This document shows positions 2,239 through 62,454 of a DNA stretch of 64,000 nucleotides, piece after piece; within the stretch, counting starts at the first letter, position 1, and each line of letters begins with the position of its first letter. Under the pieces are notes generated by a model that saw only the letters and a program-made list of their open reading frames with translations, did no database searches and was not told where the DNA came from. Location: positions 64,001-128,000 of IMG/VR virus record IMGVR_UViG_3300018432_000001. One strand, written 5' to 3'. The stretch is from a virus. The translations under genes were made by a program, and so were the position numbers.

Positions 2239-2547
2239 TGCGCCGCGCTGCCATCGAGGTTAGAGCCGTGAAGCAGCGCGGCGCGTAATCTCCCGCGCAG
2301 AAACCCCTGCGCAGCCTGCACGGCCGTGTCCGATGCACGCCGTGCACGGCAGGGTCCCACCCTGCGATCTGCGATTGCGCCGGGCGCCCCGCCTGAACGT
2401 CGGGACCATCGGAGCCTCCGATGCTACCTGGAGGTGTGGCCTCACTGGTGAGCGCGTCACTTCTCACCGCACCCAGCGTCTGGGCTAACGTCCGGCTCCC
2501 CCCTTGCGCGTAGGGGGCCGACTGGCGGCGAGACCACGGTATGCCAG
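2239..2547 (+). ncRNA. candidate structured non-coding RNA (hairpin train)
   Basis: About 11 back-to-back stems in a gap with no convincing ORF; G-U extensions favour the + strand. Confidence 0.4.
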
Positions 2548-3148: not shown

Positions 3149-3492
3149 ATGACCTCCGGATCTTTGAGGAGGTCGGCGGCCGTGATCGTGAATGATGGGC
3201 TGTGGAACAGCTCGTGCCACCAGCGCCAGCGGATCGTCTTGCCCCGCGAGGTGAACGGCAGCGGCCCGTACTGGTCGAGCATCGGTGCTTCCAGCGTCCA
3301 GTAGGCCATGCCACTGCAGCCGCAGGAGGAGCCGGTGCGGTAGTGCAGGCGCACATCCGTGCGGCCCTCGGAGGTGGCGCACCACGAGACCAGCGCCTGC
3401 GCGAGACGCTGTTTCACTGCTTTGTCCTGCGGCAGGAGTTCGATCAGGCGCGGATCGCGGCGCACCGATACGGACAGCACGGGATCTCTCAT
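3145..3492 (-). CDS. hypothetical protein (~115 aa)
   Basis: ATG (MRDPVLSV) in ATGA overlap with the HIT gene stop. Confidence 0.6.
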   Translation of the reverse strand: MRDPVLSVSVRRDPRLIELLPQDKAVKQRLAQALVSWCATSEGRTDVRLHYRTGSSCGCSGMAYWTLEAPMLDQYGPLPFTSRGKTIRWRWWHELFHSPSFTITAADLLKDPEVM

Positions 3493-3911
3493 GACTGCTC
3501 CACCTCGGCAGGCGTCGGTGTCCACGGGAGCACGATTCCGTCGCCTTTGCTTCTGGGCAGGTAGTGCAGATGGAGGTGGTCGACGGTCTGGGTCGCTTCG
3601 GCGCCGACGTTGATGATGAGGTTGAAAGGTCTGCGCTGGGCAAGGGCGTACTGCCAGGCGGCCATCCACATGTACGCGGTCGGCGAGTGGCTGACGGCGA
3701 CGCCGTGGTCTTTGGTGACGTGCAGGCGCGGGATGAACAGCACGTGGCCCTCGACGCGAGGGTTGAGGGGGACGATCGCGATGGCGTTGGTGAACTTGGC
3801 GACGACCTGGGCGGGCGCCTGACCGGTGATGATCTGGCAGAACGGGCACGGATCGCTGGAGCGGGCGTCCCCCTCGGTGGTGCTCGCTGCTTGACTGGAC
3901 GCCCGCGTCAT
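3489..3911 (-). CDS. HIT (histidine triad) family hydrolase
   Basis: CPFCQI, P..EGHVLFIP..H, N.G..A.QTV.HLHLH. Confidence 0.9.
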   Translation of the reverse strand: MTRASSQAASTTEGDARSSDPCPFCQIITGQAPAQVVAKFTNAIAIVPLNPRVEGHVLFIPRLHVTKDHGVAVSHSPTAYMWMAAWQYALAQRRPFNLIINVGAEATQTVDHLHLHYLPRSKGDGIVLPWTPTPAEVEQS

Positions 3912-6748: not shown

Positions 6749-7228
6749 GTGGATGACTGGCTGACGATCGCGCTTGCCCTGGCCCTGACGGCCAGGATCA
6801 CGCGGCTGATCACGTTCGACACGATCACCCAGCCGATCCGCGATCGGCTGCCCGGACTACTCGGTGCCCTGGTGCAGTGCCCCTGGTGCTCGGGGTTCTG
6901 GGCCGCCGTCGCCGTCGCCTTCTCCTGGCACTGGTGGGCCGACCAGACCTGGTGGCAGATCAGCGCGCTCATCGGCGCGCTCTCCTGGTTCGCCGGAGCC
7001 GTCTCCAACGCCGCGATGCCCGGCCAGCATGAAGTGGCCATGGTCGGACCCGTCGCGCTGCTCAACGCCGACGAGCCGGTCCGCGAGACCGTCGAGCGCG
7101 TCGAGACGACCAACGAGATCCACATCGACACGCGCGAGGAAGCCGATCCCGAGGAGATCGCCCGGATCGTCGTCGATGCCTTGCAGCGCGCCAAGTGGGG
7201 CCCGAACAAGGCGGGCGGGTCTGACTGA
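6749..7228 (+). CDS. DUF1360-like membrane protein
   Basis: RITRLITFDTITQPIR...LVQCPWCSGFW; TATGCT -10-like hexamer 6 nt upstream of the GTG; start uncertain (6710 possible). Confidence 0.75.
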   Translation: MDDWLTIALALALTARITRLITFDTITQPIRDRLPGLLGALVQCPWCSGFWAAVAVAFSWHWWADQTWWQISALIGALSWFAGAVSNAAMPGQHEVAMVGPVALLNADEPVRETVERVETTNEIHIDTREEADPEEIARIVVDALQRAKWGPNKAGGSD

Positions 7229-11018: not shown

Positions 11019-11042
11019 CGGCACGAAAGAGGGGACGAAGTC

Positions 11043-11228
11043 GTGGGGTGTGGCTGTCAGAAGAACGCCGCCGGTGGTTGGAAGTCGAACCGGACGCGGT
11101 GGCAGGTCGTGACCCCTTCGGGTGCACGGGTGACGTATGGACGTCGTGAGGATGCGGTGCGGCATGCGCAGATCCACAATGGCACCGTCGAAGAGATTCG
11201 TCCCGGTATGACCCTTAAGAAGGCTTAG
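11043..11228 (+). CDS. small head-module protein (MGCGC...)
   Basis: GAGGGG RBS; CGC N-terminus typical of the small gene before cluster-B-type capsids. Confidence 0.65.
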   Translation: MGCGCQKNAAGGWKSNRTRWQVVTPSGARVTYGRREDAVRHAQIHNGTVEEIRPGMTLKKA

Positions 11229-11384
11229 TACACTTTCGCGAGCTAAATGTCTGATTTACCGTTTGCTGTGGTAATGTCCGTTTTATCCAGTGTCTGGGGT
11301 GTGGGTGACCAGGCACTGAACGGACCGCTGGCGTGAGGGCCGGGGACGACAGCGACGCGCCCACTCCACATCCGGAGATACGAC

Positions 11385-21598: not shown

Positions 21599-21792
21599 GC
21601 GCGTCTCTGAGTGTAGCTGGTGTGCGGTGACGTCCTTTTCGAGTTGGTCCATGAGGGCGACCGACGAGGTCGTGCCCACGTACAGGCACGCCATCCGAGA
21701 ATTCGGCAAAGAGTATACACAACACCCTCATGTCCGTTTTGTCGTCTATAGTATGAATGACGTGGGTTTTTATTGCTAAGGAGGTCAGGCTG

Positions 21793-26145: not shown

Positions 26146-26672
26146 TCTCCTCGTTCGCCACCACTGTCCACATGCCTGGGATCTCGCCCGACCGCGTGCT
26201 GCTGCGCATCGACGACGAGGACTTCGAGTTGCCGGTTCCAGGCGCGCAGCGCCTCCTGGACATCGGTGCCTCCTACGGATGGCGCCATCTCATGCCCGAC
26301 GGCCTGGTCACGGTGGACAAGGAGCGCATGTACGAGCGCCTGAAAGACCCCGAGGACTTGATGAGCTGGAAGCGGCTGCACGTGATCGCGCAGCCGCTGG
26401 GGCTCTATCTCTACGGGTTCCCGTTCTTCGTGGCCTCGCGCGCGCTGGGAACGCTGCGGCACTACCTCACGTCGTTTCGCATGTGGTCGGTATGCAACCT
26501 GCGGATCGATCTGGCCACGGCGAGCGCGGCCGACTGGTGCGCGGCGGCGGTGACGTGGCTGGTGCAGACCGGTGACAAGGAGGAGAAGCGGCTGGAGATG
26601 TGGGCGCAGCTGACGACGCCGGGGGTGTTGCCCATGGAAGCGCCGGGGGTGAGCCCCGATTGGATGGCTTAA
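26142..26672 (+). CDS. putative tail assembly chaperone 2
   Basis: Immediately before the tape measure gene; G.PFF.A.R motif; start 26142 (TTG) or 26172. Confidence 0.55.
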   Translation: MISSFATTVHMPGISPDRVLLRIDDEDFELPVPGAQRLLDIGASYGWRHLMPDGLVTVDKERMYERLKDPEDLMSWKRLHVIAQPLGLYLYGFPFFVASRALGTLRHYLTSFRMWSVCNLRIDLATASAADWCAAAVTWLVQTGDKEEKRLEMWAQLTTPGVLPMEAPGVSPDWMA

Positions 26673-54593: not shown

Positions 54594-55802
54594 TCAGGCG
54601 GCTTGGGCGATGTGGGTGTGAGCGGTGGCTTTGAGTTTGGCGATGCGGTGGGAGTTGATGCCTTCGAGGTGGGGGAGGACGCGCTGCCAGGTGGCGATGG
54701 CGTCGGTGAGTCGTCCTTGGTCGTATTGGGCTTGGGCGACGCGGGCGAGGGTGATGGCCCAGATGCGGGGGTTGGTGTCGCGGTTCCACAGTTCGAGGCC
54801 GTCGCGTGCTTTTTCTTCGGCTCCGGCGTGGTCGCCGAGGGCTTTGAGGGTGACGCCGATCTGGTTGTGGACGCGGGCGAGGAGGGGTCCTCCGGCGGGC
54901 CCGTTGGGGGCGGCCCAGCGGGGTGGGGTGTCGGGGGTGCGGTTGATGTGTTGTTCGGTGATGGTGATGGCGGTTTGGGCTTGGCGGTGGTTGCCTGCGG
55001 CGGCGTGGGCTCGGGCGGCGGTGATGGTGAAGAGGGCTTCGGTGTAGGGGTCGACGCGGCCTTTAGCGAGTCGGCAGGCTTCTTCGGCGAGGTCGATGTG
55101 TTCGGCGCCGTGGCCGAGGGCGAAGGCTTGGTGGCATTTGATGCGCATGACCCAGGCGGTGTGGGCGTGTGGGTCGGCGATGCGGGCGAGGTTGAGGGCG
55201 TTGTCGAAGTAGTGCTGGGCGGCGCCGTCGCGGCCGACGTCGTGGGATTTCCATCCGGCGAGGTAGACGGCTTCGGCGGCGGCGCCGAACATGTTGCGGC
55301 GGATGGTGTCGTTGGTGAAGGTGCCTTCCAGGAGTGGGGGGAGTTCGGTGGCGCAGAATTCGGCGACGGTGCTGCGGCCGAAGTTGCCGCCGAAGCGTTC
55401 GTCGAGGTCGGCGAGGGAGGTGACCCATTGGCGGACGCTGTCGACGTCGGTGGTGCCGACGTGGAGGTGTTTGGCGATGGGGGTGGTGGCGGCGGGGATG
55501 GTGATTCCGGCGGCGATGTAGGCGGCGTTTCTGAAGAAGCCTCGGCGGTCCACGTCAGACCTTCCTAGTGTGGCGAGTAGGGCTACGGGGTCGCCTGTGG
55601 TGTCAAGCGTGATGAGGGTTTCGGCGACGCTCTCATATTTCTCTATCAGGCCTGGGGGCGGTGGGGTGCGGCCGGTCTCGTAGTAGGAGAGGGCGACGTG
55701 GCTGTAGGGGGCGTCGCGTTTGGCCAGCTCGTTGGCCATGGCGCGGAGGCTGAGTTGGGCCGACGCGCGGATACGACGAAGGATGGCGGGGGAATCTTCC
55801 AT
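54594..55802 (-). CDS. XRE-family HTH regulator with TPR C-terminus
   Basis: LRRIR....LSLRAMA......S...LSYYETGR; VDRRGF, D..FGG, AGW...D.G...AQ.YF..AL.LA typical of the actinomycete family. Confidence 0.85.
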   Translation of the reverse strand: MEDSPAILRRIRASAQLSLRAMANELAKRDAPYSHVALSYYETGRTPPPPGLIEKYESVAETLITLDTTGDPVALLATLGRSDVDRRGFFRNAAYIAAGITIPAATTPIAKHLHVGTTDVDSVRQWVTSLADLDERFGGNFGRSTVAEFCATELPPLLEGTFTNDTIRRNMFGAAAEAVYLAGWKSHDVGRDGAAQHYFDNALNLARIADPHAHTAWVMRIKCHQAFALGHGAEHIDLAEEACRLAKGRVDPYTEALFTITAARAHAAAGNHRQAQTAITITEQHINRTPDTPPRWAAPNGPAGGPLLARVHNQIGVTLKALGDHAGAEEKARDGLELWNRDTNPRIWAITLARVAQAQYDQGRLTDAIATWQRVLPHLEGINSHRIAKLKATAHTHIAQAA

Positions 55803-56017
55803 GGGCTGTGAACACCTTGTTAACGGGGAAGGGCTTCCGCTGGGGAAAGGGTGTGATCCAGACTAACACTCACGACTGGCTGTTCCGGCCTGGTCGCTTT
55901 AAGCCAATGGTGCTGCTCACCGTTGGGCCGGGCCGTGCGTCTCCCCCGTGAAAGGCACGGCCCGGCTGTCCGCCCGACCCAGTCTCATCCGTTTCCCGTG
56001 GAGAGGAAGGCCCCGGC

Positions 56018-56638
56018 ATGGCCAGTGTAGAGCCCGTGATGGTGTCGGCGTTGGAGCCGCACGCGTTCGCGCAGTGGTCGTTGGTGTTCAACCAGCAGAC
56101 CGAGGATCGCGGGGAGATGTCGATGCTGTCGACGTGCCATGAGGGGACGCATGGGATCTGGATGTTGAATGCTCAGGTGGGGCGGGCGTGGCCGGTGGCG
56201 TGGCCGTCCGTTCGGGGGAGTTTGCTGGCCGACATGAAGTTCATCGTCCCTCCTGGGGGTACTGGCGGTTACTCTGCGTTTTGGAGGAGCTATGTGCGTG
56301 CGATGTTCTATCCGCGTCTGCTGGATCATCTGCCCGCCTGCAGGGCACGAGGAGTGAAGGAGAATGCGATGCCGAGTATTTCGACGGTGGGGACGTTCGA
56401 GTTCGGCGGCCATGTGTATGCGGTGGAGTGGCATCCAGATGAGATCCGGGTGACCGATGCCGACGGCCAGGACGTGGCGTTCATGTCACTGAGTCGGGAT
56501 CTGCAGGTGGGGGAGGCGGTGCCAGCGCGGTCGGCGCCGTCGACGTTGCTGGACCGGCTGCGTCAGGGTGCGGTCGAGGTGTTGCGGTCGGCGGCGGGGC
56601 ACGATCGTGGGCCTTGGAGGCTGTCGAAGACGGCGTGA
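56018..56638 (+). CDS. hypothetical protein (true start may be 56369)
   Basis: Divergent from the XRE-TPR gene; AAGGAG RBS before the internal ATG at 56369. Confidence 0.45.
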   Translation: MASVEPVMVSALEPHAFAQWSLVFNQQTEDRGEMSMLSTCHEGTHGIWMLNAQVGRAWPVAWPSVRGSLLADMKFIVPPGGTGGYSAFWRSYVRAMFYPRLLDHLPACRARGVKENAMPSISTVGTFEFGGHVYAVEWHPDEIRVTDADGQDVAFMSLSRDLQVGEAVPARSAPSTLLDRLRQGAVEVLRSAAGHDRGPWRLSKTA

Positions 56639-56689
56639 GGTGACGAGTGGGTTCCTCATTTCGGGGGTGCTGCCGGGTAGGCTCACGCC

Positions 56690-57622
56690 ATGAATACGCA
56701 CAAATGCGAAATTAACGCCCAAATGGTGCATTCATGTCGGGTGCTGCTCGGTGCCCGCGCCGCCGGGTACCCCGACACCCCTGACAACTTCGACGCCCAG
56801 CACCTGGCCCACGGCCGCCGCATCAAACGCAGCCTCGACCTCGCCCACGCCTTCGCCACCCCCCGCCAGCTTCCCTTCGAGGACCGGCACGTGCACCTGT
56901 GGGCCCGGGGCCACCGTGCCGGGCGCGTGGTCCACAACTGGAAGCCCGTGGTCCGCTGGAAAGACGCCGAGACGCCCGCCGCCCGCGAGCGCTTCCGTCT
57001 CGCCGCCCGGCGCGTGCACCTCCTCGACCGCCAGGTGGCGATCATCCTCCACCACGAACCGGAGAACGACCTGGGCCAGCGCGGGGTCCGCAAGATCGCG
57101 GCCGGGACTCCCGAGGAGTACCGGCGCATGTGGGCCATCGTCCGGGAGGTGTTCGCCCAGGAGGGGGCCGACGACGTTGCCTGGGGCATGGCGTACATGA
57201 ACTACCCGAAGTGGGACTACGCCGTCGCGGACCTCTACCCCGGTGACGAGCTGGTCGACTGGGTCTGGTGCAACGCGTACGGGTCCCCCGAGCGGCCGGA
57301 TCTGGCCGAGAACCTCGCGCACTTCGCGAATCTGATGCGCGCCTTCGGCATCGGTGAGGGAAAGCCGTGGGGGGTTGCGGAGTGGAGCACTCCGGGGTTG
57401 CCCCTCGACCTGGCGGCCGACTACTTCGAGCAGGCGCGAGCGTTCCTCGACACGCCCGACGCCGATGCGTTCAAGGCGTGGATGGTGTTCGACTCGCCTG
57501 GAGCGGAAAACCGGTCGGACCTGCGGTTGGGTTTCGACGCTCAGGGGGACCGGGTGGAGGACAAGCTGGAGGCCTATCAGCGGTTCACGCGCCACCGGCG
57601 GTTCCAGTGCGCCGGGCGGTAA
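56690..57622 (+). CDS. glycoside hydrolase family 26-like protein (clan A)
   Basis: HHEPE acid/base, Y..MW.....F, YPGD..VDW....Y, GKPWGVAEW nucleophile; no signal peptide; TAGGCT hexamer 6 nt upstream. Confidence 0.8.
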   Translation: MNTHKCEINAQMVHSCRVLLGARAAGYPDTPDNFDAQHLAHGRRIKRSLDLAHAFATPRQLPFEDRHVHLWARGHRAGRVVHNWKPVVRWKDAETPAARERFRLAARRVHLLDRQVAIILHHEPENDLGQRGVRKIAAGTPEEYRRMWAIVREVFAQEGADDVAWGMAYMNYPKWDYAVADLYPGDELVDWVWCNAYGSPERPDLAENLAHFANLMRAFGIGEGKPWGVAEWSTPGLPLDLAADYFEQARAFLDTPDADAFKAWMVFDSPGAENRSDLRLGFDAQGDRVEDKLEAYQRFTRHRRFQCAGR

Positions 57623-57752
57623 CATCAACACACATCCGATTCACTGAAGTTGCAGGGAATGGGGTTACCGAAGAAGCTCTGCAGGCGTTGAACTGTCGAG
57701 TGTTGCAAGATCGCTCCGGGGCCGCCACTGCCGCTGGCGGCCCCATCAACGT

Positions 57753-58157
57753 CTACCGCGTGCCGCCCAGCTCGCCGAGTTCACCGAGGATGTCACCGGT
57801 GATTCCCGGGCTCGGGCCGACGTAGTTCAGGCACACGCAGAGCACGGTGTGGTATCCGGTGATCGTTCCTTCGTCGTTCCACTGGTTGGGCTGCTGGAGC
57901 GGTTTGATGCAGGCGCCGCTGCGGTCGTGGAAGTTCGCGCCGTGCCCGCACTCGCAGATCGGCCGCTTCGCGTTCAGCCGGGCCTGTTCGAGTTCGAGCT
58001 TCTTCTTCTCCAACTCGAAGGCGCGCTTGAGCTGCGCCGCTTTGAGCTCGTGGCGGCCTTTGAACCGGGCGCCGGTGGAGGGACCCAGGATCATGGCCAG
58101 CACGACGATAGTTCAGAAGAAGCCTTCGGAGAAGATCGCGTCGATCAGCGGTTCCAC
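57753..58157 (-). pseudogene. membrane-anchored coiled-coil protein interrupted by an in-frame TGA at codon 15
   Basis: GGAGG RBS and GTG at 58157: MEPLIDAIFSEGFF*TIVVLAMILG...; C-terminal CECGH...H. Confidence 0.6.
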
Positions 58158-58247
58158 GGTCGGCCTCCGGGGGAGTGAGGTGTCATAATCATCTTTCTCG
58201 GGAGGGTGAGGGCCGCGCGGGTGAGGACACGGCCGCGCGGCCCGACA

Positions 58248-58781
58248 TCAGGATTCGACGCTGGCCGCTTCAGCAGCTTCCAGCTCCGCGATCTTAGCCT
58301 TGGCAAGCTTCTCGTTCTCCACCATGGCGTCCCACGCGGACAGCAGCTTCTCGCCGTCCAGCGCCTTCGGCTCGTAGGTGCGCAGATTGAAGCCGGTCAG
58401 GACGACCGGCCCGAACACCGGGGTGCCGTGCTGGAAGGGGGTGCGCGTCTCGTTCGCGATCAGCATGGCCGCGACCGCGTTGAACCGCTCGGGGTCGGCG
58501 CGGTGGTAGTCGGCGGTGTTGCAGAAGTACGCGTGCCCGCTGGCGCGGAACTTGAAGACCGTGTCGGCGTCGCCGCCGGTGACCTTGTCGAAGAACGCGA
58601 ACCAGTCCCGGTGGTCGTCGCCCAGGCCGACCTTGTCGCAGTCGTAGAGGGTGACGTGCCGTTCCAAGTCGATGACCATGATCGGGCGCGCAACGACCGC
58701 GAGGGTGTCGCGGAAGACGGGGTCGTCGATGGCCACCTGGCGCGTCGGCTCGGTCGCGGGGATTTCGGGGGTCTCAGACAT
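58248..58781 (-). CDS. DUF3846-like hypothetical protein (177 aa)
   Basis: N.VA..L.......VFGPVVLTG; overlaps the helicase stop. Confidence 0.55.
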   Translation of the reverse strand: MSETPEIPATEPTRQVAIDDPVFRDTLAVVARPIMVIDLERHVTLYDCDKVGLGDDHRDWFAFFDKVTGGDADTVFKFRASGHAYFCNTADYHRADPERFNAVAAMLIANETRTPFQHGTPVFGPVVLTGFNLRTYEPKALDGEKLLSAWDAMVENEKLAKAKIAELEAAEAASVES

Positions 58782-60294
58782 GGTCGCCTGCTTTCTTGAG
58801 TTCACGTTGGTACCAGCGTTGCAGCTGGTCTTCGGTCGCCTCACCGGCGAGGTAGTCGTCGATCCAGGCGATGGCCTGGTCGTCGAGGTGCTGCTGGGCG
58901 CGGGTGACCGCGACGTAGCACAGCTGCAGCAAGGCGGGGTCCATCGGACGCAGCTTCCCTTCGCCGTCCAGTGACGGTTCGGGGAAGTCGGCGCCGATCT
59001 TGACCCGAGGGTACTGCAGGCCCTTGGCGCCGTGCCCGGTCATGACCGTCAGATCGACCGGTCCCTTGTCGGTGTCCTTGAACTGCTTGGCGATCTTCAG
59101 CAGCTGGGCGGCACCCCACTTCTCGACCAGGCGCACGAACACGGCCAGTTCACCGGCGGTCGGGTCGGACTCGACGTAGTGCAGCACCTCCCGCCAGGAG
59201 CCGAACGTCGCCAGCTCGGGGTAGTCGCATTGCAGTCCGGCCTGCAGGTCCAGGGCCGCTTTGCACATCTTCTTGATGTTGTCCGACACCCGCTTGGCCA
59301 TGCCGACACGCCGCCCGGCCACCAGCGCCGTGTGGGCGGCCTCGACGGCACCGGAGTTGGTGCGGCACAGGATGACGTCGGGCTCATGCAGGGGGCCGAC
59401 CGTTCCACCGTCGCCTCGGCCCCTCAGGCGCAGGTCGCAGTCGAGGGCGGCCAGCCACTGGTTGGCGCGGTCGGCGATGGCCGGACCGAACCGGAACGAT
59501 TCGGTGAGGCTCAGGCGCTGGTCGGCGGGCCACTTCGCGAGCGCGTCCTGGGCACCGCGCCAGGCGTACAGGGTCTGGTTGACGTCGCCGACGGCGATGA
59601 GTTGGCACTGCTGGCGGGTGAGGACGTCGAGCATGAGCGCGTCGATGTCCTGCCCTTCGTCGAGCATGATGAAGTTGACCTTGAGCTTGGGGTTCTTCAG
59701 TGCCCACATCTTCCGGTAGTGATCGTGGGTGAATTCGGCGCGGTCGGAGTGGGGGTCTTGCAGGTCGGTCCACATGGCTTTCGCGAACGGCAGCACGTGC
59801 GCTTTCAGCGCCTTGTGGGCGTCGGGGTCGATGCCCTCGACGGGGCCCACGTGCCAGGCGGTCAGCTCGCGGTCGGCCGAGCGCGCGAAGCGCTGCACCG
59901 CGAGCTTGGCGAGGATGGCGACGCCGATGGAGGTGATGGTGCGGTCGGGGGCCGGGGCGAACGGTTTCGTGCCGAACGCGTCGGCCAGCTGTGCGCCGTT
60001 GCGCCCGGTGTCCCGGCCGCTCCAGCGGCGCGCGTAGTGGCGGCCGACGTCCATGGCCACGCTGTGGCTGGTGTGGCATTCGACGGTGCCGGGGAAGTGT
60101 TGCTTCGCGTCGGCGCGGTTGTTCTTGCCGAACGCGATGTACAGGCCCATCTTCAGGCGCCGCTCTTTGGCTTGGGCGCCCAGCAGCAGTGTCGCGGTTT
60201 TACCGGTTCCGGCCAGGGCCTGCACGGCGACGTTCTTGCCTTCCTCGATCGCGGTGACGATCCGGTCCTGCTCATCGGTGGGCGTGAAGGTCAT
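58774..60294 (-). CDS. UvrD/Rep-like superfamily 1 helicase
   Basis: ALAGTGKT, LDEGQD, VGD.NQ.LY.WRGA, LTESFRFG, LCRTN, T.H.AKGL.Y, YVAVTRA. Confidence 0.92.
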   Translation of the reverse strand: MTFTPTDEQDRIVTAIEEGKNVAVQALAGTGKTATLLLGAQAKERRLKMGLYIAFGKNNRADAKQHFPGTVECHTSHSVAMDVGRHYARRWSGRDTGRNGAQLADAFGTKPFAPAPDRTITSIGVAILAKLAVQRFARSADRELTAWHVGPVEGIDPDAHKALKAHVLPFAKAMWTDLQDPHSDRAEFTHDHYRKMWALKNPKLKVNFIMLDEGQDIDALMLDVLTRQQCQLIAVGDVNQTLYAWRGAQDALAKWPADQRLSLTESFRFGPAIADRANQWLAALDCDLRLRGRGDGGTVGPLHEPDVILCRTNSGAVEAAHTALVAGRRVGMAKRVSDNIKKMCKAALDLQAGLQCDYPELATFGSWREVLHYVESDPTAGELAVFVRLVEKWGAAQLLKIAKQFKDTDKGPVDLTVMTGHGAKGLQYPRVKIGADFPEPSLDGEGKLRPMDPALLQLCYVAVTRAQQHLDDQAIAWIDDYLAGEATEDQLQRWYQRELKKAGDHV

Positions 60295-61649: not shown

Positions 61650-61931
61650 CTACAGCCGCTGCTGTTGCTGCTGTTGCTGCGCGATGAGCGCGGTGTTCGC
61701 GGCGGTGTTCTTCAGGTTGATGTCCTGGTTGGCCTCGCGCACCAGGCGGCTCATGCGGAACATGTCGACGAACCACAGGATGAACAGGCCGCCGAAGGAG
61801 ACGCTGTACTTCACGCCGCGCGACGTGTCGCCCAGGTAGTAGTGGTGGGCGCCGACCCAGCCGAGAGTCCAGTACCACAGGTAGGCGCGGCCAAGGGTCT
61901 TGTTCTTCTGGTAGCCGTGAACGGGGGGCAT
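61650..61931 (-). CDS. TM2 (NINE) domain membrane protein
   Basis: AYL....LG..GAH.YYLG....G......GG....W..D. Confidence 0.85.
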   Translation of the reverse strand: MPPVHGYQKNKTLGRAYLWYWTLGWVGAHHYYLGDTSRGVKYSVSFGGLFILWFVDMFRMSRLVREANQDINLKNTAANTALIAQQQQQQQRL

Positions 61932-62454
61932 AAGAGCTCCTTCAGAGGGGCGCCGGGGCGCGGTGAGATTGTTTCACCCATGGTACGACCGAGGGCCGCC
62001 AGCGCGGTGCTGGCGGCCCTAACGGGTCCATGGGTGGGGTGCAGCAGGTTTCGACTACTGCACCCCGTTTCGAGCGGACACCCATGATCAAGGCGTTTCT
62101 CGTCGCGCCCCGGGAGAGGCACGAGTAGGTGACCCGGGGGCGGCGGTTCGAACGCCGCTCCCGGGGGGAGCCCATCCTGTGTGCACCAGGGCGGTCTCCA
62201 TTCGCTACTGCCAGGAGAAGGCTACGTAGCAGGGGCGGCGGTTGCAGTCGCCGCGCCTTTTTGCGAGTGATACCCAAGGTCAAGGCATCCATTCGGCCCC
62301 GCGTCCCGTGAGAGACGCAAGTAGTGGTGCGCCTGTGAAAAGACCGCGTCAATCCCATGAACCAGTCTTCCTTCGCACAACGGGGGTCGTGCGTGCGCCA
62401 GGCGCGACGCAGCACCGACTGTACCGCACCCGTTGCAGATCAGGCGAACAACCC

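Follow-up and report, generated by a model that had tools for sequence, protein, structure and literature searches.

A covarying hairpin element beside the large terminase gene of a 142-kb phage genome as a candidate structured noncoding RNA

The virus record IMGVR_UViG_3300018432_000001 has 142,477 bases with a G+C content of 65.8% and an end overlap of 123 bases. Its bases 64001–128000 were analysed here; this whole stretch of 64,000 nucleotides (nt) is called the window, and positions refer to it unless record coordinates are named. A train of hairpins lies in the window between terL, the large terminase gene, and a conserved gene of 80 amino acids (aa). We propose that this element is a discrete structured noncoding RNA (ncRNA) of ~310 nt, encoded on the minus strand like terL and the genes that precede it, and we give this reading a probability of a little under 0.6. 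The comparison with related loci shows a fold under selection, with promoter-like and terminator features at its edges in the terL sense; we infer that it is transcribed from the minus strand as a separate RNA.

Results and Discussion

The gap between terL and the 80-aa gene (2193–2556, 364 nt) is non-coding. No periodicity of third-position G+C (GC3) was found in it, and the substitutions of the element are spread evenly over the codon phases (27/21/22, 13/14/10 and 27/27/23 against the related loci L003, L005 and L006, respectively); the counts for terL in the same comparisons are 21/7/108, 20/10/91 and 51/39/164. All reading frames of the element are broken by 1- and 2-nt indels among relatives. 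The preliminary description of this locus, made from the sequence alone, had named a conserved protein among the short open reading frames (ORFs) as a finding that would speak against an RNA. A conserved small ORF is ruled out by the phase counts, the frame-breaking indels and the lack of a Pfam match for three short ORFs, in agreement with the GC3 result. A repeat or mobile element was also rejected, since the element is single copy: neither blastn nor a covariance model found a second copy in the genome.

The nine stems quoted in that description were all found where it had placed them (Table 1), and its proposal to compare the folding energy with dinucleotide-shuffled controls was followed on both strands. 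The gap is more stable than 100 of 100 shuffles on each, with a minimum free energy (MFE) of −175.7 on the plus strand (z −5.30; 0/100 as low) and −179.5 on the minus strand (z −3.24; 0/100 as low). When 474 genome segments of 300 nt were scanned (step 300, adjusted for composition), the region ranked 5th on the plus strand and 57th on the minus strand. It is well folded, yet it is not the extreme of the genome. The most stable of the 474 segments on both strands (61931–62230; z −3.8 and −4.6) adjoins a cluster of six tRNA genes and contains short inverted repeats only.

We regard covariation as stronger evidence for a real fold than folding energy. Scans based on terL yielded eight viral and six metagenome loci, partly on the same contigs. 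The whole element is present in L003, L004, L005 and L006 (terL 86–96% identical), and the full-length set was counted as four distinct sequences, since L003 and L004 are nearly identical. RNAalifold gave −154.2 for the minus and −149.7 for the plus strand of the five sequences; the covariation terms were −4.9 and −1.3, and there were 19 and 17 compensatory pairs, respectively. Eighty pairs were predicted on both strands, and in these strand-neutral helices 293 of 319 two-letter cells were Watson–Crick; the rest were 6 G:T on the plus strand, 15 A:C on the plus strand and 5 others, and there was one gap in addition. Each helix of the element save 2380–2382/2410–2412 has at least one compensatory pair. 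Two apiece were found in H1, in helix C, in the stems 2447–2452/2463–2468, 2472–2476/2480–2484 and 2494–2501/2512–2519, and in the long-range helix 2436–2445/2528–2537. The preliminary description had proposed a covariation check across the terL-upstream regions of related phages, and by RNAalifold and these pair counts the stems are preserved by compensatory changes in four close relatives. It had also cautioned that a high G+C content inflates hairpin counts, but this is a non-coding folded element maintained by selection. The hairpin train is real and evolves like a folded RNA.

The sample comprises four distinct full-length sequences and eight modules, and several boundary features were judged by eye. 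In viral contigs, five DNA patterns gave known relatives and chance matches only, and nhmmer added none. In bacterial genomes the promoter pattern had 0 matches, and the core pattern had 46 matches over many phyla, none of them homologous by nhmmer (best E 0.03). The four runs used consist of DNA contigs; relatives of the element occur in contigs of two runs besides the source sample, X5 with the entire element and X2 with 84 different letters in place of 2231–2320.

Table 1. Features of the terL-proximal element and its neighbourhood (positions in the window)
Feature	Position	Strand	Remarks
terL, large terminase gene, 504 aa	678–2192	−	Pfam Terminase_6N, E 2.9e-09
terL promoter region	2199–2226	−	−10 box TAGATT at 2199–2204, 6 nt ahead of ATG
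Recurring motif AAAACGGACAT	2210–2220	−	inside palindrome CTGAAT/ATTCAG
H1, G+C stem of 12–14 bp	2239–2285	−	putative terminator of both the RNA and the upstream operon
H2, variable hairpin	2296–2314	−	deleted in L005; other sequence in L003, L004 and L006
Conserved core module, 78 nt	2308–2385	−	linker CCCGGCGCAAUCGCAGA, helix B, helix C
Helix C	2318–2328/2336–2345	−	loop CAUCGGA
Helix B	2349–2355/2359–2365	−	loop GGG
Helix A	2386–2406	−	7 pairs, 1 compensatory
Junction region	2407–2435	−	candidate pseudoknot partner
5' domain, window type only	2436–2550	−	long-range helix 2436–2445/2528–2537 around three hairpins
Extended −10-like box TGCTATAAA	2556–2564	−	5' edge of the element; putative RNA promoter, start near 2549
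80-aa gene, function not assigned	2557–2799	−	last gene of the upstream minus-strand operon
Stem of H1	2240–2251/2273–2284		
Stem GCGCAG/CTGCGC (H2)	2296–2301/2309–2314		
Stem TGCACGGC/GCCGTGCA	2318–2325/2339–2346		
Stem GCAGGGT/ACCCTGC	2349–2355/2359–2365		
Stem CATCGGA/TCCGATG	2407–2413/2417–2423		
Stem GGTGAG/CTCACC	2447–2452/2463–2468		
Stem CCCAG/CTGGG	2472–2476/2480–2484		
Stem CCCCCT/AGGGGG	2497–2502/2511–2516		
Stem CTGGC/GCCAG	2522–2526/2543–2547		

The three hairpins that the long-range helix of the 5' domain encloses are the three stems between 2447 and 2519 just listed for their compensatory pairs, and the domain also holds the invariant stem 2522–2526/2543–2547. In the long-range helix, each of the four mismatches reads A:C on the plus strand and hence G:U on the minus strand. 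H2 looks dispensable from its deletion and replacement among relatives (Table 1).

The core module was followed into more distant relatives by a model, R1, of 78 positions and 17 pairs, which was built from the window, L003, L005, L006, L034 and the first of two modules that L007 carries in tandem. R1 scored the window core at 94.6 bits and recovered two modules outside its training set, L007 3180–3258 (40.5 bits) and L009 3624–3702 (32.6 bits). The L033 homologue scores just 13.1 bits, and in L008 the model gives noise only (13 bits, inside coding sequence). In the eight significant modules, 88.9% of cells are paired, compared with 34.6–58.6% in slid controls, and 11 of the 17 pairs show compensatory change; this alignment was fitted to R1, with six of the eight modules used in building the model, and so leans towards structure. 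On four of five measures, the core was not matched by any of 500 shuffles. Its 17-nt linker and its loops hardly vary in sequence even among relatives with a terL identity of only 71–76%, and the architecture of the module is kept although the helix sequences differ. By eye, a hairpin of unrelated sequence stands at the place of helix A in every one of the distant relatives; the three mismatches of helix A itself are all G:U on the minus strand.

These data bear on the explanation that the hairpins are a mere 3' untranslated tail, a stack that ends the upstream operon and shields its mRNA from 3' exonucleases and has no function of its own. The element does lie at the 3' end of the minus-strand operon, its set of hairpins is not constant (H2 is present in some relatives and not in others, and only the window type has the 5' domain), and its overall divergence is near that of synonymous sites (22%, versus 21% at third codon positions of terL in the L003 comparison). 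However, neither a near-invariant linker with its loops nor an architecture retained with different helix sequences is expected of a mere tail, and the geometry of the −10 box described below suggests a start of its own; we consider this the least probable of the explanations.

The loop of helix C is complementary to a 5-nt 5' tail in all nine modules, at a distance of 80–86 nt. The complementary segments are UCGGA and UCCGA in modules of the window type and CUGGA and UCCAG in the remaining ones; the two types differ by two compensatory changes. The module is probably pseudoknotted through this loop and tail. In the window, UCCGAUG (sense, 2407–2413) is complementary both to the adjacent CAUCGGA (2417–2423) and to the identical loop of helix C (2329–2335); the local hairpin formed with the former is mismatched in L003 and L005. 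Since the minus strand has the 7-mer CAUCGGA twice, in the helix C loop and in the arm of the local hairpin, and its complement UCCGAUG once, two mutually exclusive pairings are possible, and these could act as a switch. A search of the phage genome for an antisense target of the invariant linker gave only 10–11-mers at chance frequency, none of them at a gene start.

A DNA-level role was also considered, either as a region recognised in packaging (pac/cos) or as a single-strand DNA initiation signal next to terL. The element stands directly upstream of terL, and the preliminary description had noted that no small terminase is recognisable in the window; this held for the 19 proteins scanned, a scan that did not span the whole window. 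The linker is repeated in L007, and the loop of H1 is inverted between relatives, which shows at least one event of recombination or DNA folding at the inverted repeat. On the other hand, a protein-binding site in duplex DNA would not be expected to have a long-range helix, positions that tolerate G:U or compensatory changes in numerous helices that are unrelated in sequence, and a multi-branch covarying fold argues instead for a nucleic acid in single-stranded form. Furthermore, the sharpest GC-skew switch of the genome is ~10 kb off, at 55–58 kb of the record, the element is separated from terL in L007 and absent from the L008 fragment, and the contig from the source sample is unbroken through the region (a weak point, from contigs only). 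Contig start points differ among the relatives. Taken together, the covarying long-range helix and the promoter/terminator geometry seem to fit an RNA better than a pac site, and we hold a DNA-level element to be very unlikely.

The inversion in H1 concerns the loop at 2253–2271 (19–21 nt between perfect 12-bp arms), which is flipped in L005 and L006 with respect to the window and L003. The window hairpin has a 95.7% match in L006 (2865–2910) whose orientation is reversed with respect to the remaining alignment. The change is a minute inversion at a hairpin, and such minute loop inversions were reportedly described by Kelchner and Wendel in 1996 at hairpins in non-coding chloroplast DNA, where the loop is likewise flipped between relatives.

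The preliminary description had placed the RNA on the plus strand, divergent from terL, and had taken a copy of a recurring motif at 2210–2220 as its promoter, with the caveat that the motif may serve terL. The motif copy is present, and it is the caveat that holds. A −10 box, TAGATT or TATATT, lies 6–7 nt before the ATG of terL, beside the motif and on its terL side, in the window and in all 10 relatives with a terL identity of at least 70% (L003 to L009, L033 and L034 among them). No Shine–Dalgarno sequence was seen by eye before terL. In actinobacteria, a TANNNT box at 6–7 nt from the start codon without a Shine–Dalgarno sequence marks leaderless mRNAs, and terL has this arrangement. It is most likely transcribed without a leader from a promoter of its own, to which the 2210 motif belongs. 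No conserved TANNNT box was found on the hairpin side of the motif; its far side is occupied by a coding gene in L007 and by a terminator hairpin in L008, L009 and L033. The L008 fragment has this promoter and terL without the element.

The sequence TGTCCGTTTT has six exact copies in the genome, all on the plus strand and none on the minus strand. They stand at record positions 26158, 55927, 57196, 66212, 75276 and 85732, the last three being 2212, 11276 and 21732 of the window. The orientation is always plus although the adjacent genes run both ways, and copies precede capsid and tail-fibre-like genes. A gap of 366 nt before the major capsid gene (11019–11384) contains a tandem of the motif and a degenerate copy of it, without a good −10 box in either direction.

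A plus-strand ncRNA that starts at ~2240 and is driven by the 2210–2220 motif, divergent from terL, could draw on this orientation, as copies 25–27 nt before plus-strand ORFs have good −10 boxes (TATAGT at 21747, TAAACT at record position 26173) and the copy before the capsid gene is likewise on the plus strand. The plus strand also folds better relative to shuffles (z −5.3, rank 5/474), and a terminal stem, 2226–2235/2554–2563, forms on this strand only, using G:U pairs. However, that stem has 1/10 compensatory pairs and is broken in L005 and L006, no terminator was seen by eye at 2550, and the hairpin side of the motif has no TANNNT at the right spacing and nothing conserved in distant relatives, where the motif abuts the coding gene or the terminator hairpins mentioned above. 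The wobble pairs point the same way. It had been stated that imperfect positions are mostly G–U on the plus strand and A–C on the minus strand, but the strand-neutral cells gave the reverse, with 6 G:T on the plus strand against 15 A:C on the plus strand, that is, G:U on the minus strand, and 5 others. A plus-strand RNA thus seems unlikely to us. Helix extensions predicted on one strand only have 37 G:T cells on plus and 25 on minus, which leans to plus, although the predictor of each strand finds its own wobbles in this way. In the core, 5 wobble cells favour minus and 2 plus. The z-scores of eight relatives, taken per sequence, did not separate the strands. The evidence on the strand is indirect and mixed, but the edge signals, the wobble counts and the covariation term favour minus, and the element is most likely on the minus strand, in the sense of terL. 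As the flanking genes run minus, transcription of the upstream operon should in any case include this strand as its tail.

At the 5' edge of the element, the extended −10-like box TGCTATAAA is kept in the window, L003, L004 and L005 and appears as TGCTATAAC in L006. The TAA stop of the 80-aa gene falls within the box in the window; in L006 the box is non-coding, and a different upstream gene (DUF6011) stops there at an earlier TGA. In the four distant relatives a TANNNT precedes the 5' tail UCCAG without exception, ending 6 nt (L007, L009 and L033) or 8 nt (L034) away from it. For L033 the scan tool calls a promoter, TAGACA-17-TATTCT (0.1 expected by chance), and TAGACA-17-TACTCT was recognised by eye in L009.

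At the other edge, H1 has 12 perfect pairs, or 14 by the consensus fold, and is invariant save for its two compensatory pairs. It has the G+C-rich stem-loop that characterises an intrinsic (Rho-independent) terminator. In L009, L033 and L034 the element closes with a long hairpin followed by the T-rich TTTTTTCT, TTTTCTCT or GTTTCGTT right before the terL promoter, and H1 occupies the same place as these tailed hairpins.

This order of a promoter-like box, a pseudoknotted module and a terminator hairpin within 40–50 nt of the terL start is the classical one of a cis-acting leader, riboswitch-like or a protein-dependent attenuator, in which the fold would gate read-through of terminator H1 into terL. 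Moreover, the gene upstream of the element differs between relatives (the 80-aa gene, DUF6011, HIT and others), and the element stays beside terL. A leader nevertheless appears rather unlikely. terL has an invariant −10 box of its own at leaderless distance and no ribosome-binding site by eye, and a read-through RNA should therefore translate terL poorly. In addition, two other genes separate the element and terL in L007, the variable H2 lies between the module and H1, no alternative pairing with the terminator is evident, and L008 has the promoter and terL without the element.

Besides the lean of the eight-module alignment, several results weigh against a separate minus-strand RNA. The folding comparison favours the plus strand in the window (z −5.3 versus −3.2; rank 5 versus 57 of 474), and the motif at 2210–2220 shares its plus orientation with the copies ahead of plus-strand late genes. 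The wobble counts are small and come from 4–8 related sequences, and in the hairpin 2494–2519 they are tied at 4 to 4. On the measure of further pair types, 45/500 shuffles reach the observed value of the core, and the loop–tail match, taken singly, is equalled by 14–218 of 1000 shuffled loops (8 cases scored). The element diverges about as much as third codon positions of terL, as stated above. As for the edges, the window-type box (TATAAA/TATAAC) is without the final T of TANNNT and overlaps a stop codon in 4/5 sequences, and a mechanical scan of both strands for sigma-70-type promoters found none in the window, L009 and L034. No U tract follows H1 directly, the window having ACUCGUCUCAU there, and a mechanical terminator scan called none in the window, L009, L033 and L034; the tailed hairpins were probably not called since their loops of 9–14 nt exceed the limit of 8 in the scan.

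If the element is a minus-strand ncRNA, as we propose, the RNA would start a few bases past TGCTATAAA (2556–2564), the box that overlaps the stop of the 80-aa gene. The window-type 5' domain (2436–2550) would come first, and it would be followed by a conserved module of ~115 nt (2308–2413), which consists of the 5' tail UCCGA, helix A, the linker CCCGGCGCAAUCGC, helix B with its GGG loop, and helix C, whose loop would pair back to the 5' tail as a pseudoknot. The RNA would end at the strong hairpin H1 (2239–2285). H1 would also block read-through from the upstream operon and insulate the terL promoter, so that the leaderless terL mRNA would come from this promoter alone. The folded RNA may act in trans, with the invariant linker and the loops binding a partner, either a protein or a ligand.

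To our knowledge, phage-encoded structured RNAs with known roles are few; the prohead RNA (pRNA), put, antisense RNAs and anti-defence RNAs may be given as examples. The put RNA consists of two stem-loops of ~70 nt. In phage HK022 this cis-acting antiterminator is a folded nascent RNA that acts on pausing and termination (PMC9378689). The element described here is also folded and lies between a promoter-like box and a terminator hairpin, but it has 200–380 nt, its terminator is directly followed by an independent promoter, and nothing suggests read-through. With respect to intrinsic terminators, H1 is likewise a 12–14-bp G+C stem at the end of an operon, but in the window type no U tract follows it.

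The phi29-like pRNA (174 nt) is, like this element, a phage-encoded structured ncRNA of a few hundred nt or less. It is tied to DNA packaging and associates with itself through Watson–Crick pairing between two loops (PMC5066667), and here a putative RNA gene with a covarying loop-to-tail complementarity of 5–7 nt lies beside terL. The two differ in that the present phage has a classical large terminase, that the L008 fragment has terL without the RNA, and that the complementarity here may lie within one molecule. The pRNA model was absent from the Rfam matches of the window, of 2100–2700 and of five relatives, and the likeness of the element to pRNA is one of position only. Position alone also suggests a packaging role, and the terL of L008 stands without the element. 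It is quite unlikely, in our estimate, that the module represents a new functional RNA class tied to packaging (an RNA cofactor or scaffold of the terminase motor in place of the absent small terminase), or a ligand-sensing or self-cleaving fold. In the packaging version, the RNA would assemble through the covarying loop–tail pairing, as phi29 pRNA does through its loops.

The comparison with Rfam 15 that the preliminary description had proposed gave no match for the element, and it covers 6S, Ms1 and Y RNA only if the library holds those models. At gathering thresholds the window yields only 8 tRNAs; 2100–2700 at E ≤10 gave three matches of 11–18 bits, against cut-offs of 46–110, and the five relatives at E ≤5 gave nothing consistent. 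Fremin et al. (2023; PMC10690425) surveyed intergenic regions of IMG/VR and reported 8,495 novel candidate RNAs of 29–151 nt, of which 14 were consistently upstream of a putative large terminase domain. These candidates come from the same data source and the same type of evidence as the element described here. The contig numbers of five relatives are absent from the searchable files of that survey, files that do not cover its alignments and models. The element is a candidate new structured phage ncRNA with no relative in Rfam.

Genome Setting

Besides the match given in Table 1, terL matches Pfam Terminase_6C with E 2.8e-04 and 21.3 bits, under the cut-off of 22.6 bits. Its closest phage relatives are those of Saccharomonospora phage PIS 136 (41.6%) and of Gordonia phages (38–42%), and the host is therefore presumed to be an actinobacterium. 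The minus strand holds every gene from ~6600 to the window start, and plus-strand portal, capsid and tail genes begin at 7228. The 80-aa gene has a GC3 of 0.85 and shares 65/80 residues (81%) with its homologue in L005; there is a homologue in L003 too, and Pfam and PHROG searches with the gene were without a match.

A tRNA gene, tRNA-Tyr by ARAGORN, lies at 71–153, beyond terL and a further small gene. Rfam finds a tRNA of equal length at the matching place in L006 (4910–4992), L009 (6013–6095) and L033 (5025–5107).

In L007, two small genes overlapping by 4 nt (3298–3851) lie between the RNA element and the terL promoter. They encode 76 aa, with a weak sub-threshold match to DUF6290, and 108 aa, with no match; the first has TACAGT 6 nt ahead of its ATG. 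The overlap gives the pair a layout like that of toxin–antitoxin genes.

Record positions 55,500–59,250, ~4.7–8.5 kb before the window start, form a stretch of 3.7 kb with a low G+C content (0.59–0.61) and without an ORF by the GC3 caller. Within it are three copies or near-copies of the recurring motif, and the GC skew of the genome switches most sharply there (−0.25 to +0.26); it is a candidate origin or control region. A replication origin at the hairpin element was rejected, as the cumulative GC skew turns at ~55–58 kb of the record and not at 66 kb.

Conclusions

The map of this locus is corrected in that terL is most likely leaderless, with its own promoter, of which the recurring motif is a part. 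If the element were merely a 3' tail, it would be an ordinary terminator region with unusually good covariation. If it were a packaging RNA, or a ligand-sensing or self-cleaving one, it would be without precedent among the RNAs described in actinobacterial phages. A small clade of ~140-kb soil actinophages appears to keep a modular, probably pseudoknotted RNA beside its DNA-packaging enzyme. If this RNA is expressed, it would offer a defined fold of 80–115 nt with invariant single-stranded residues, which may be used to find its partner.

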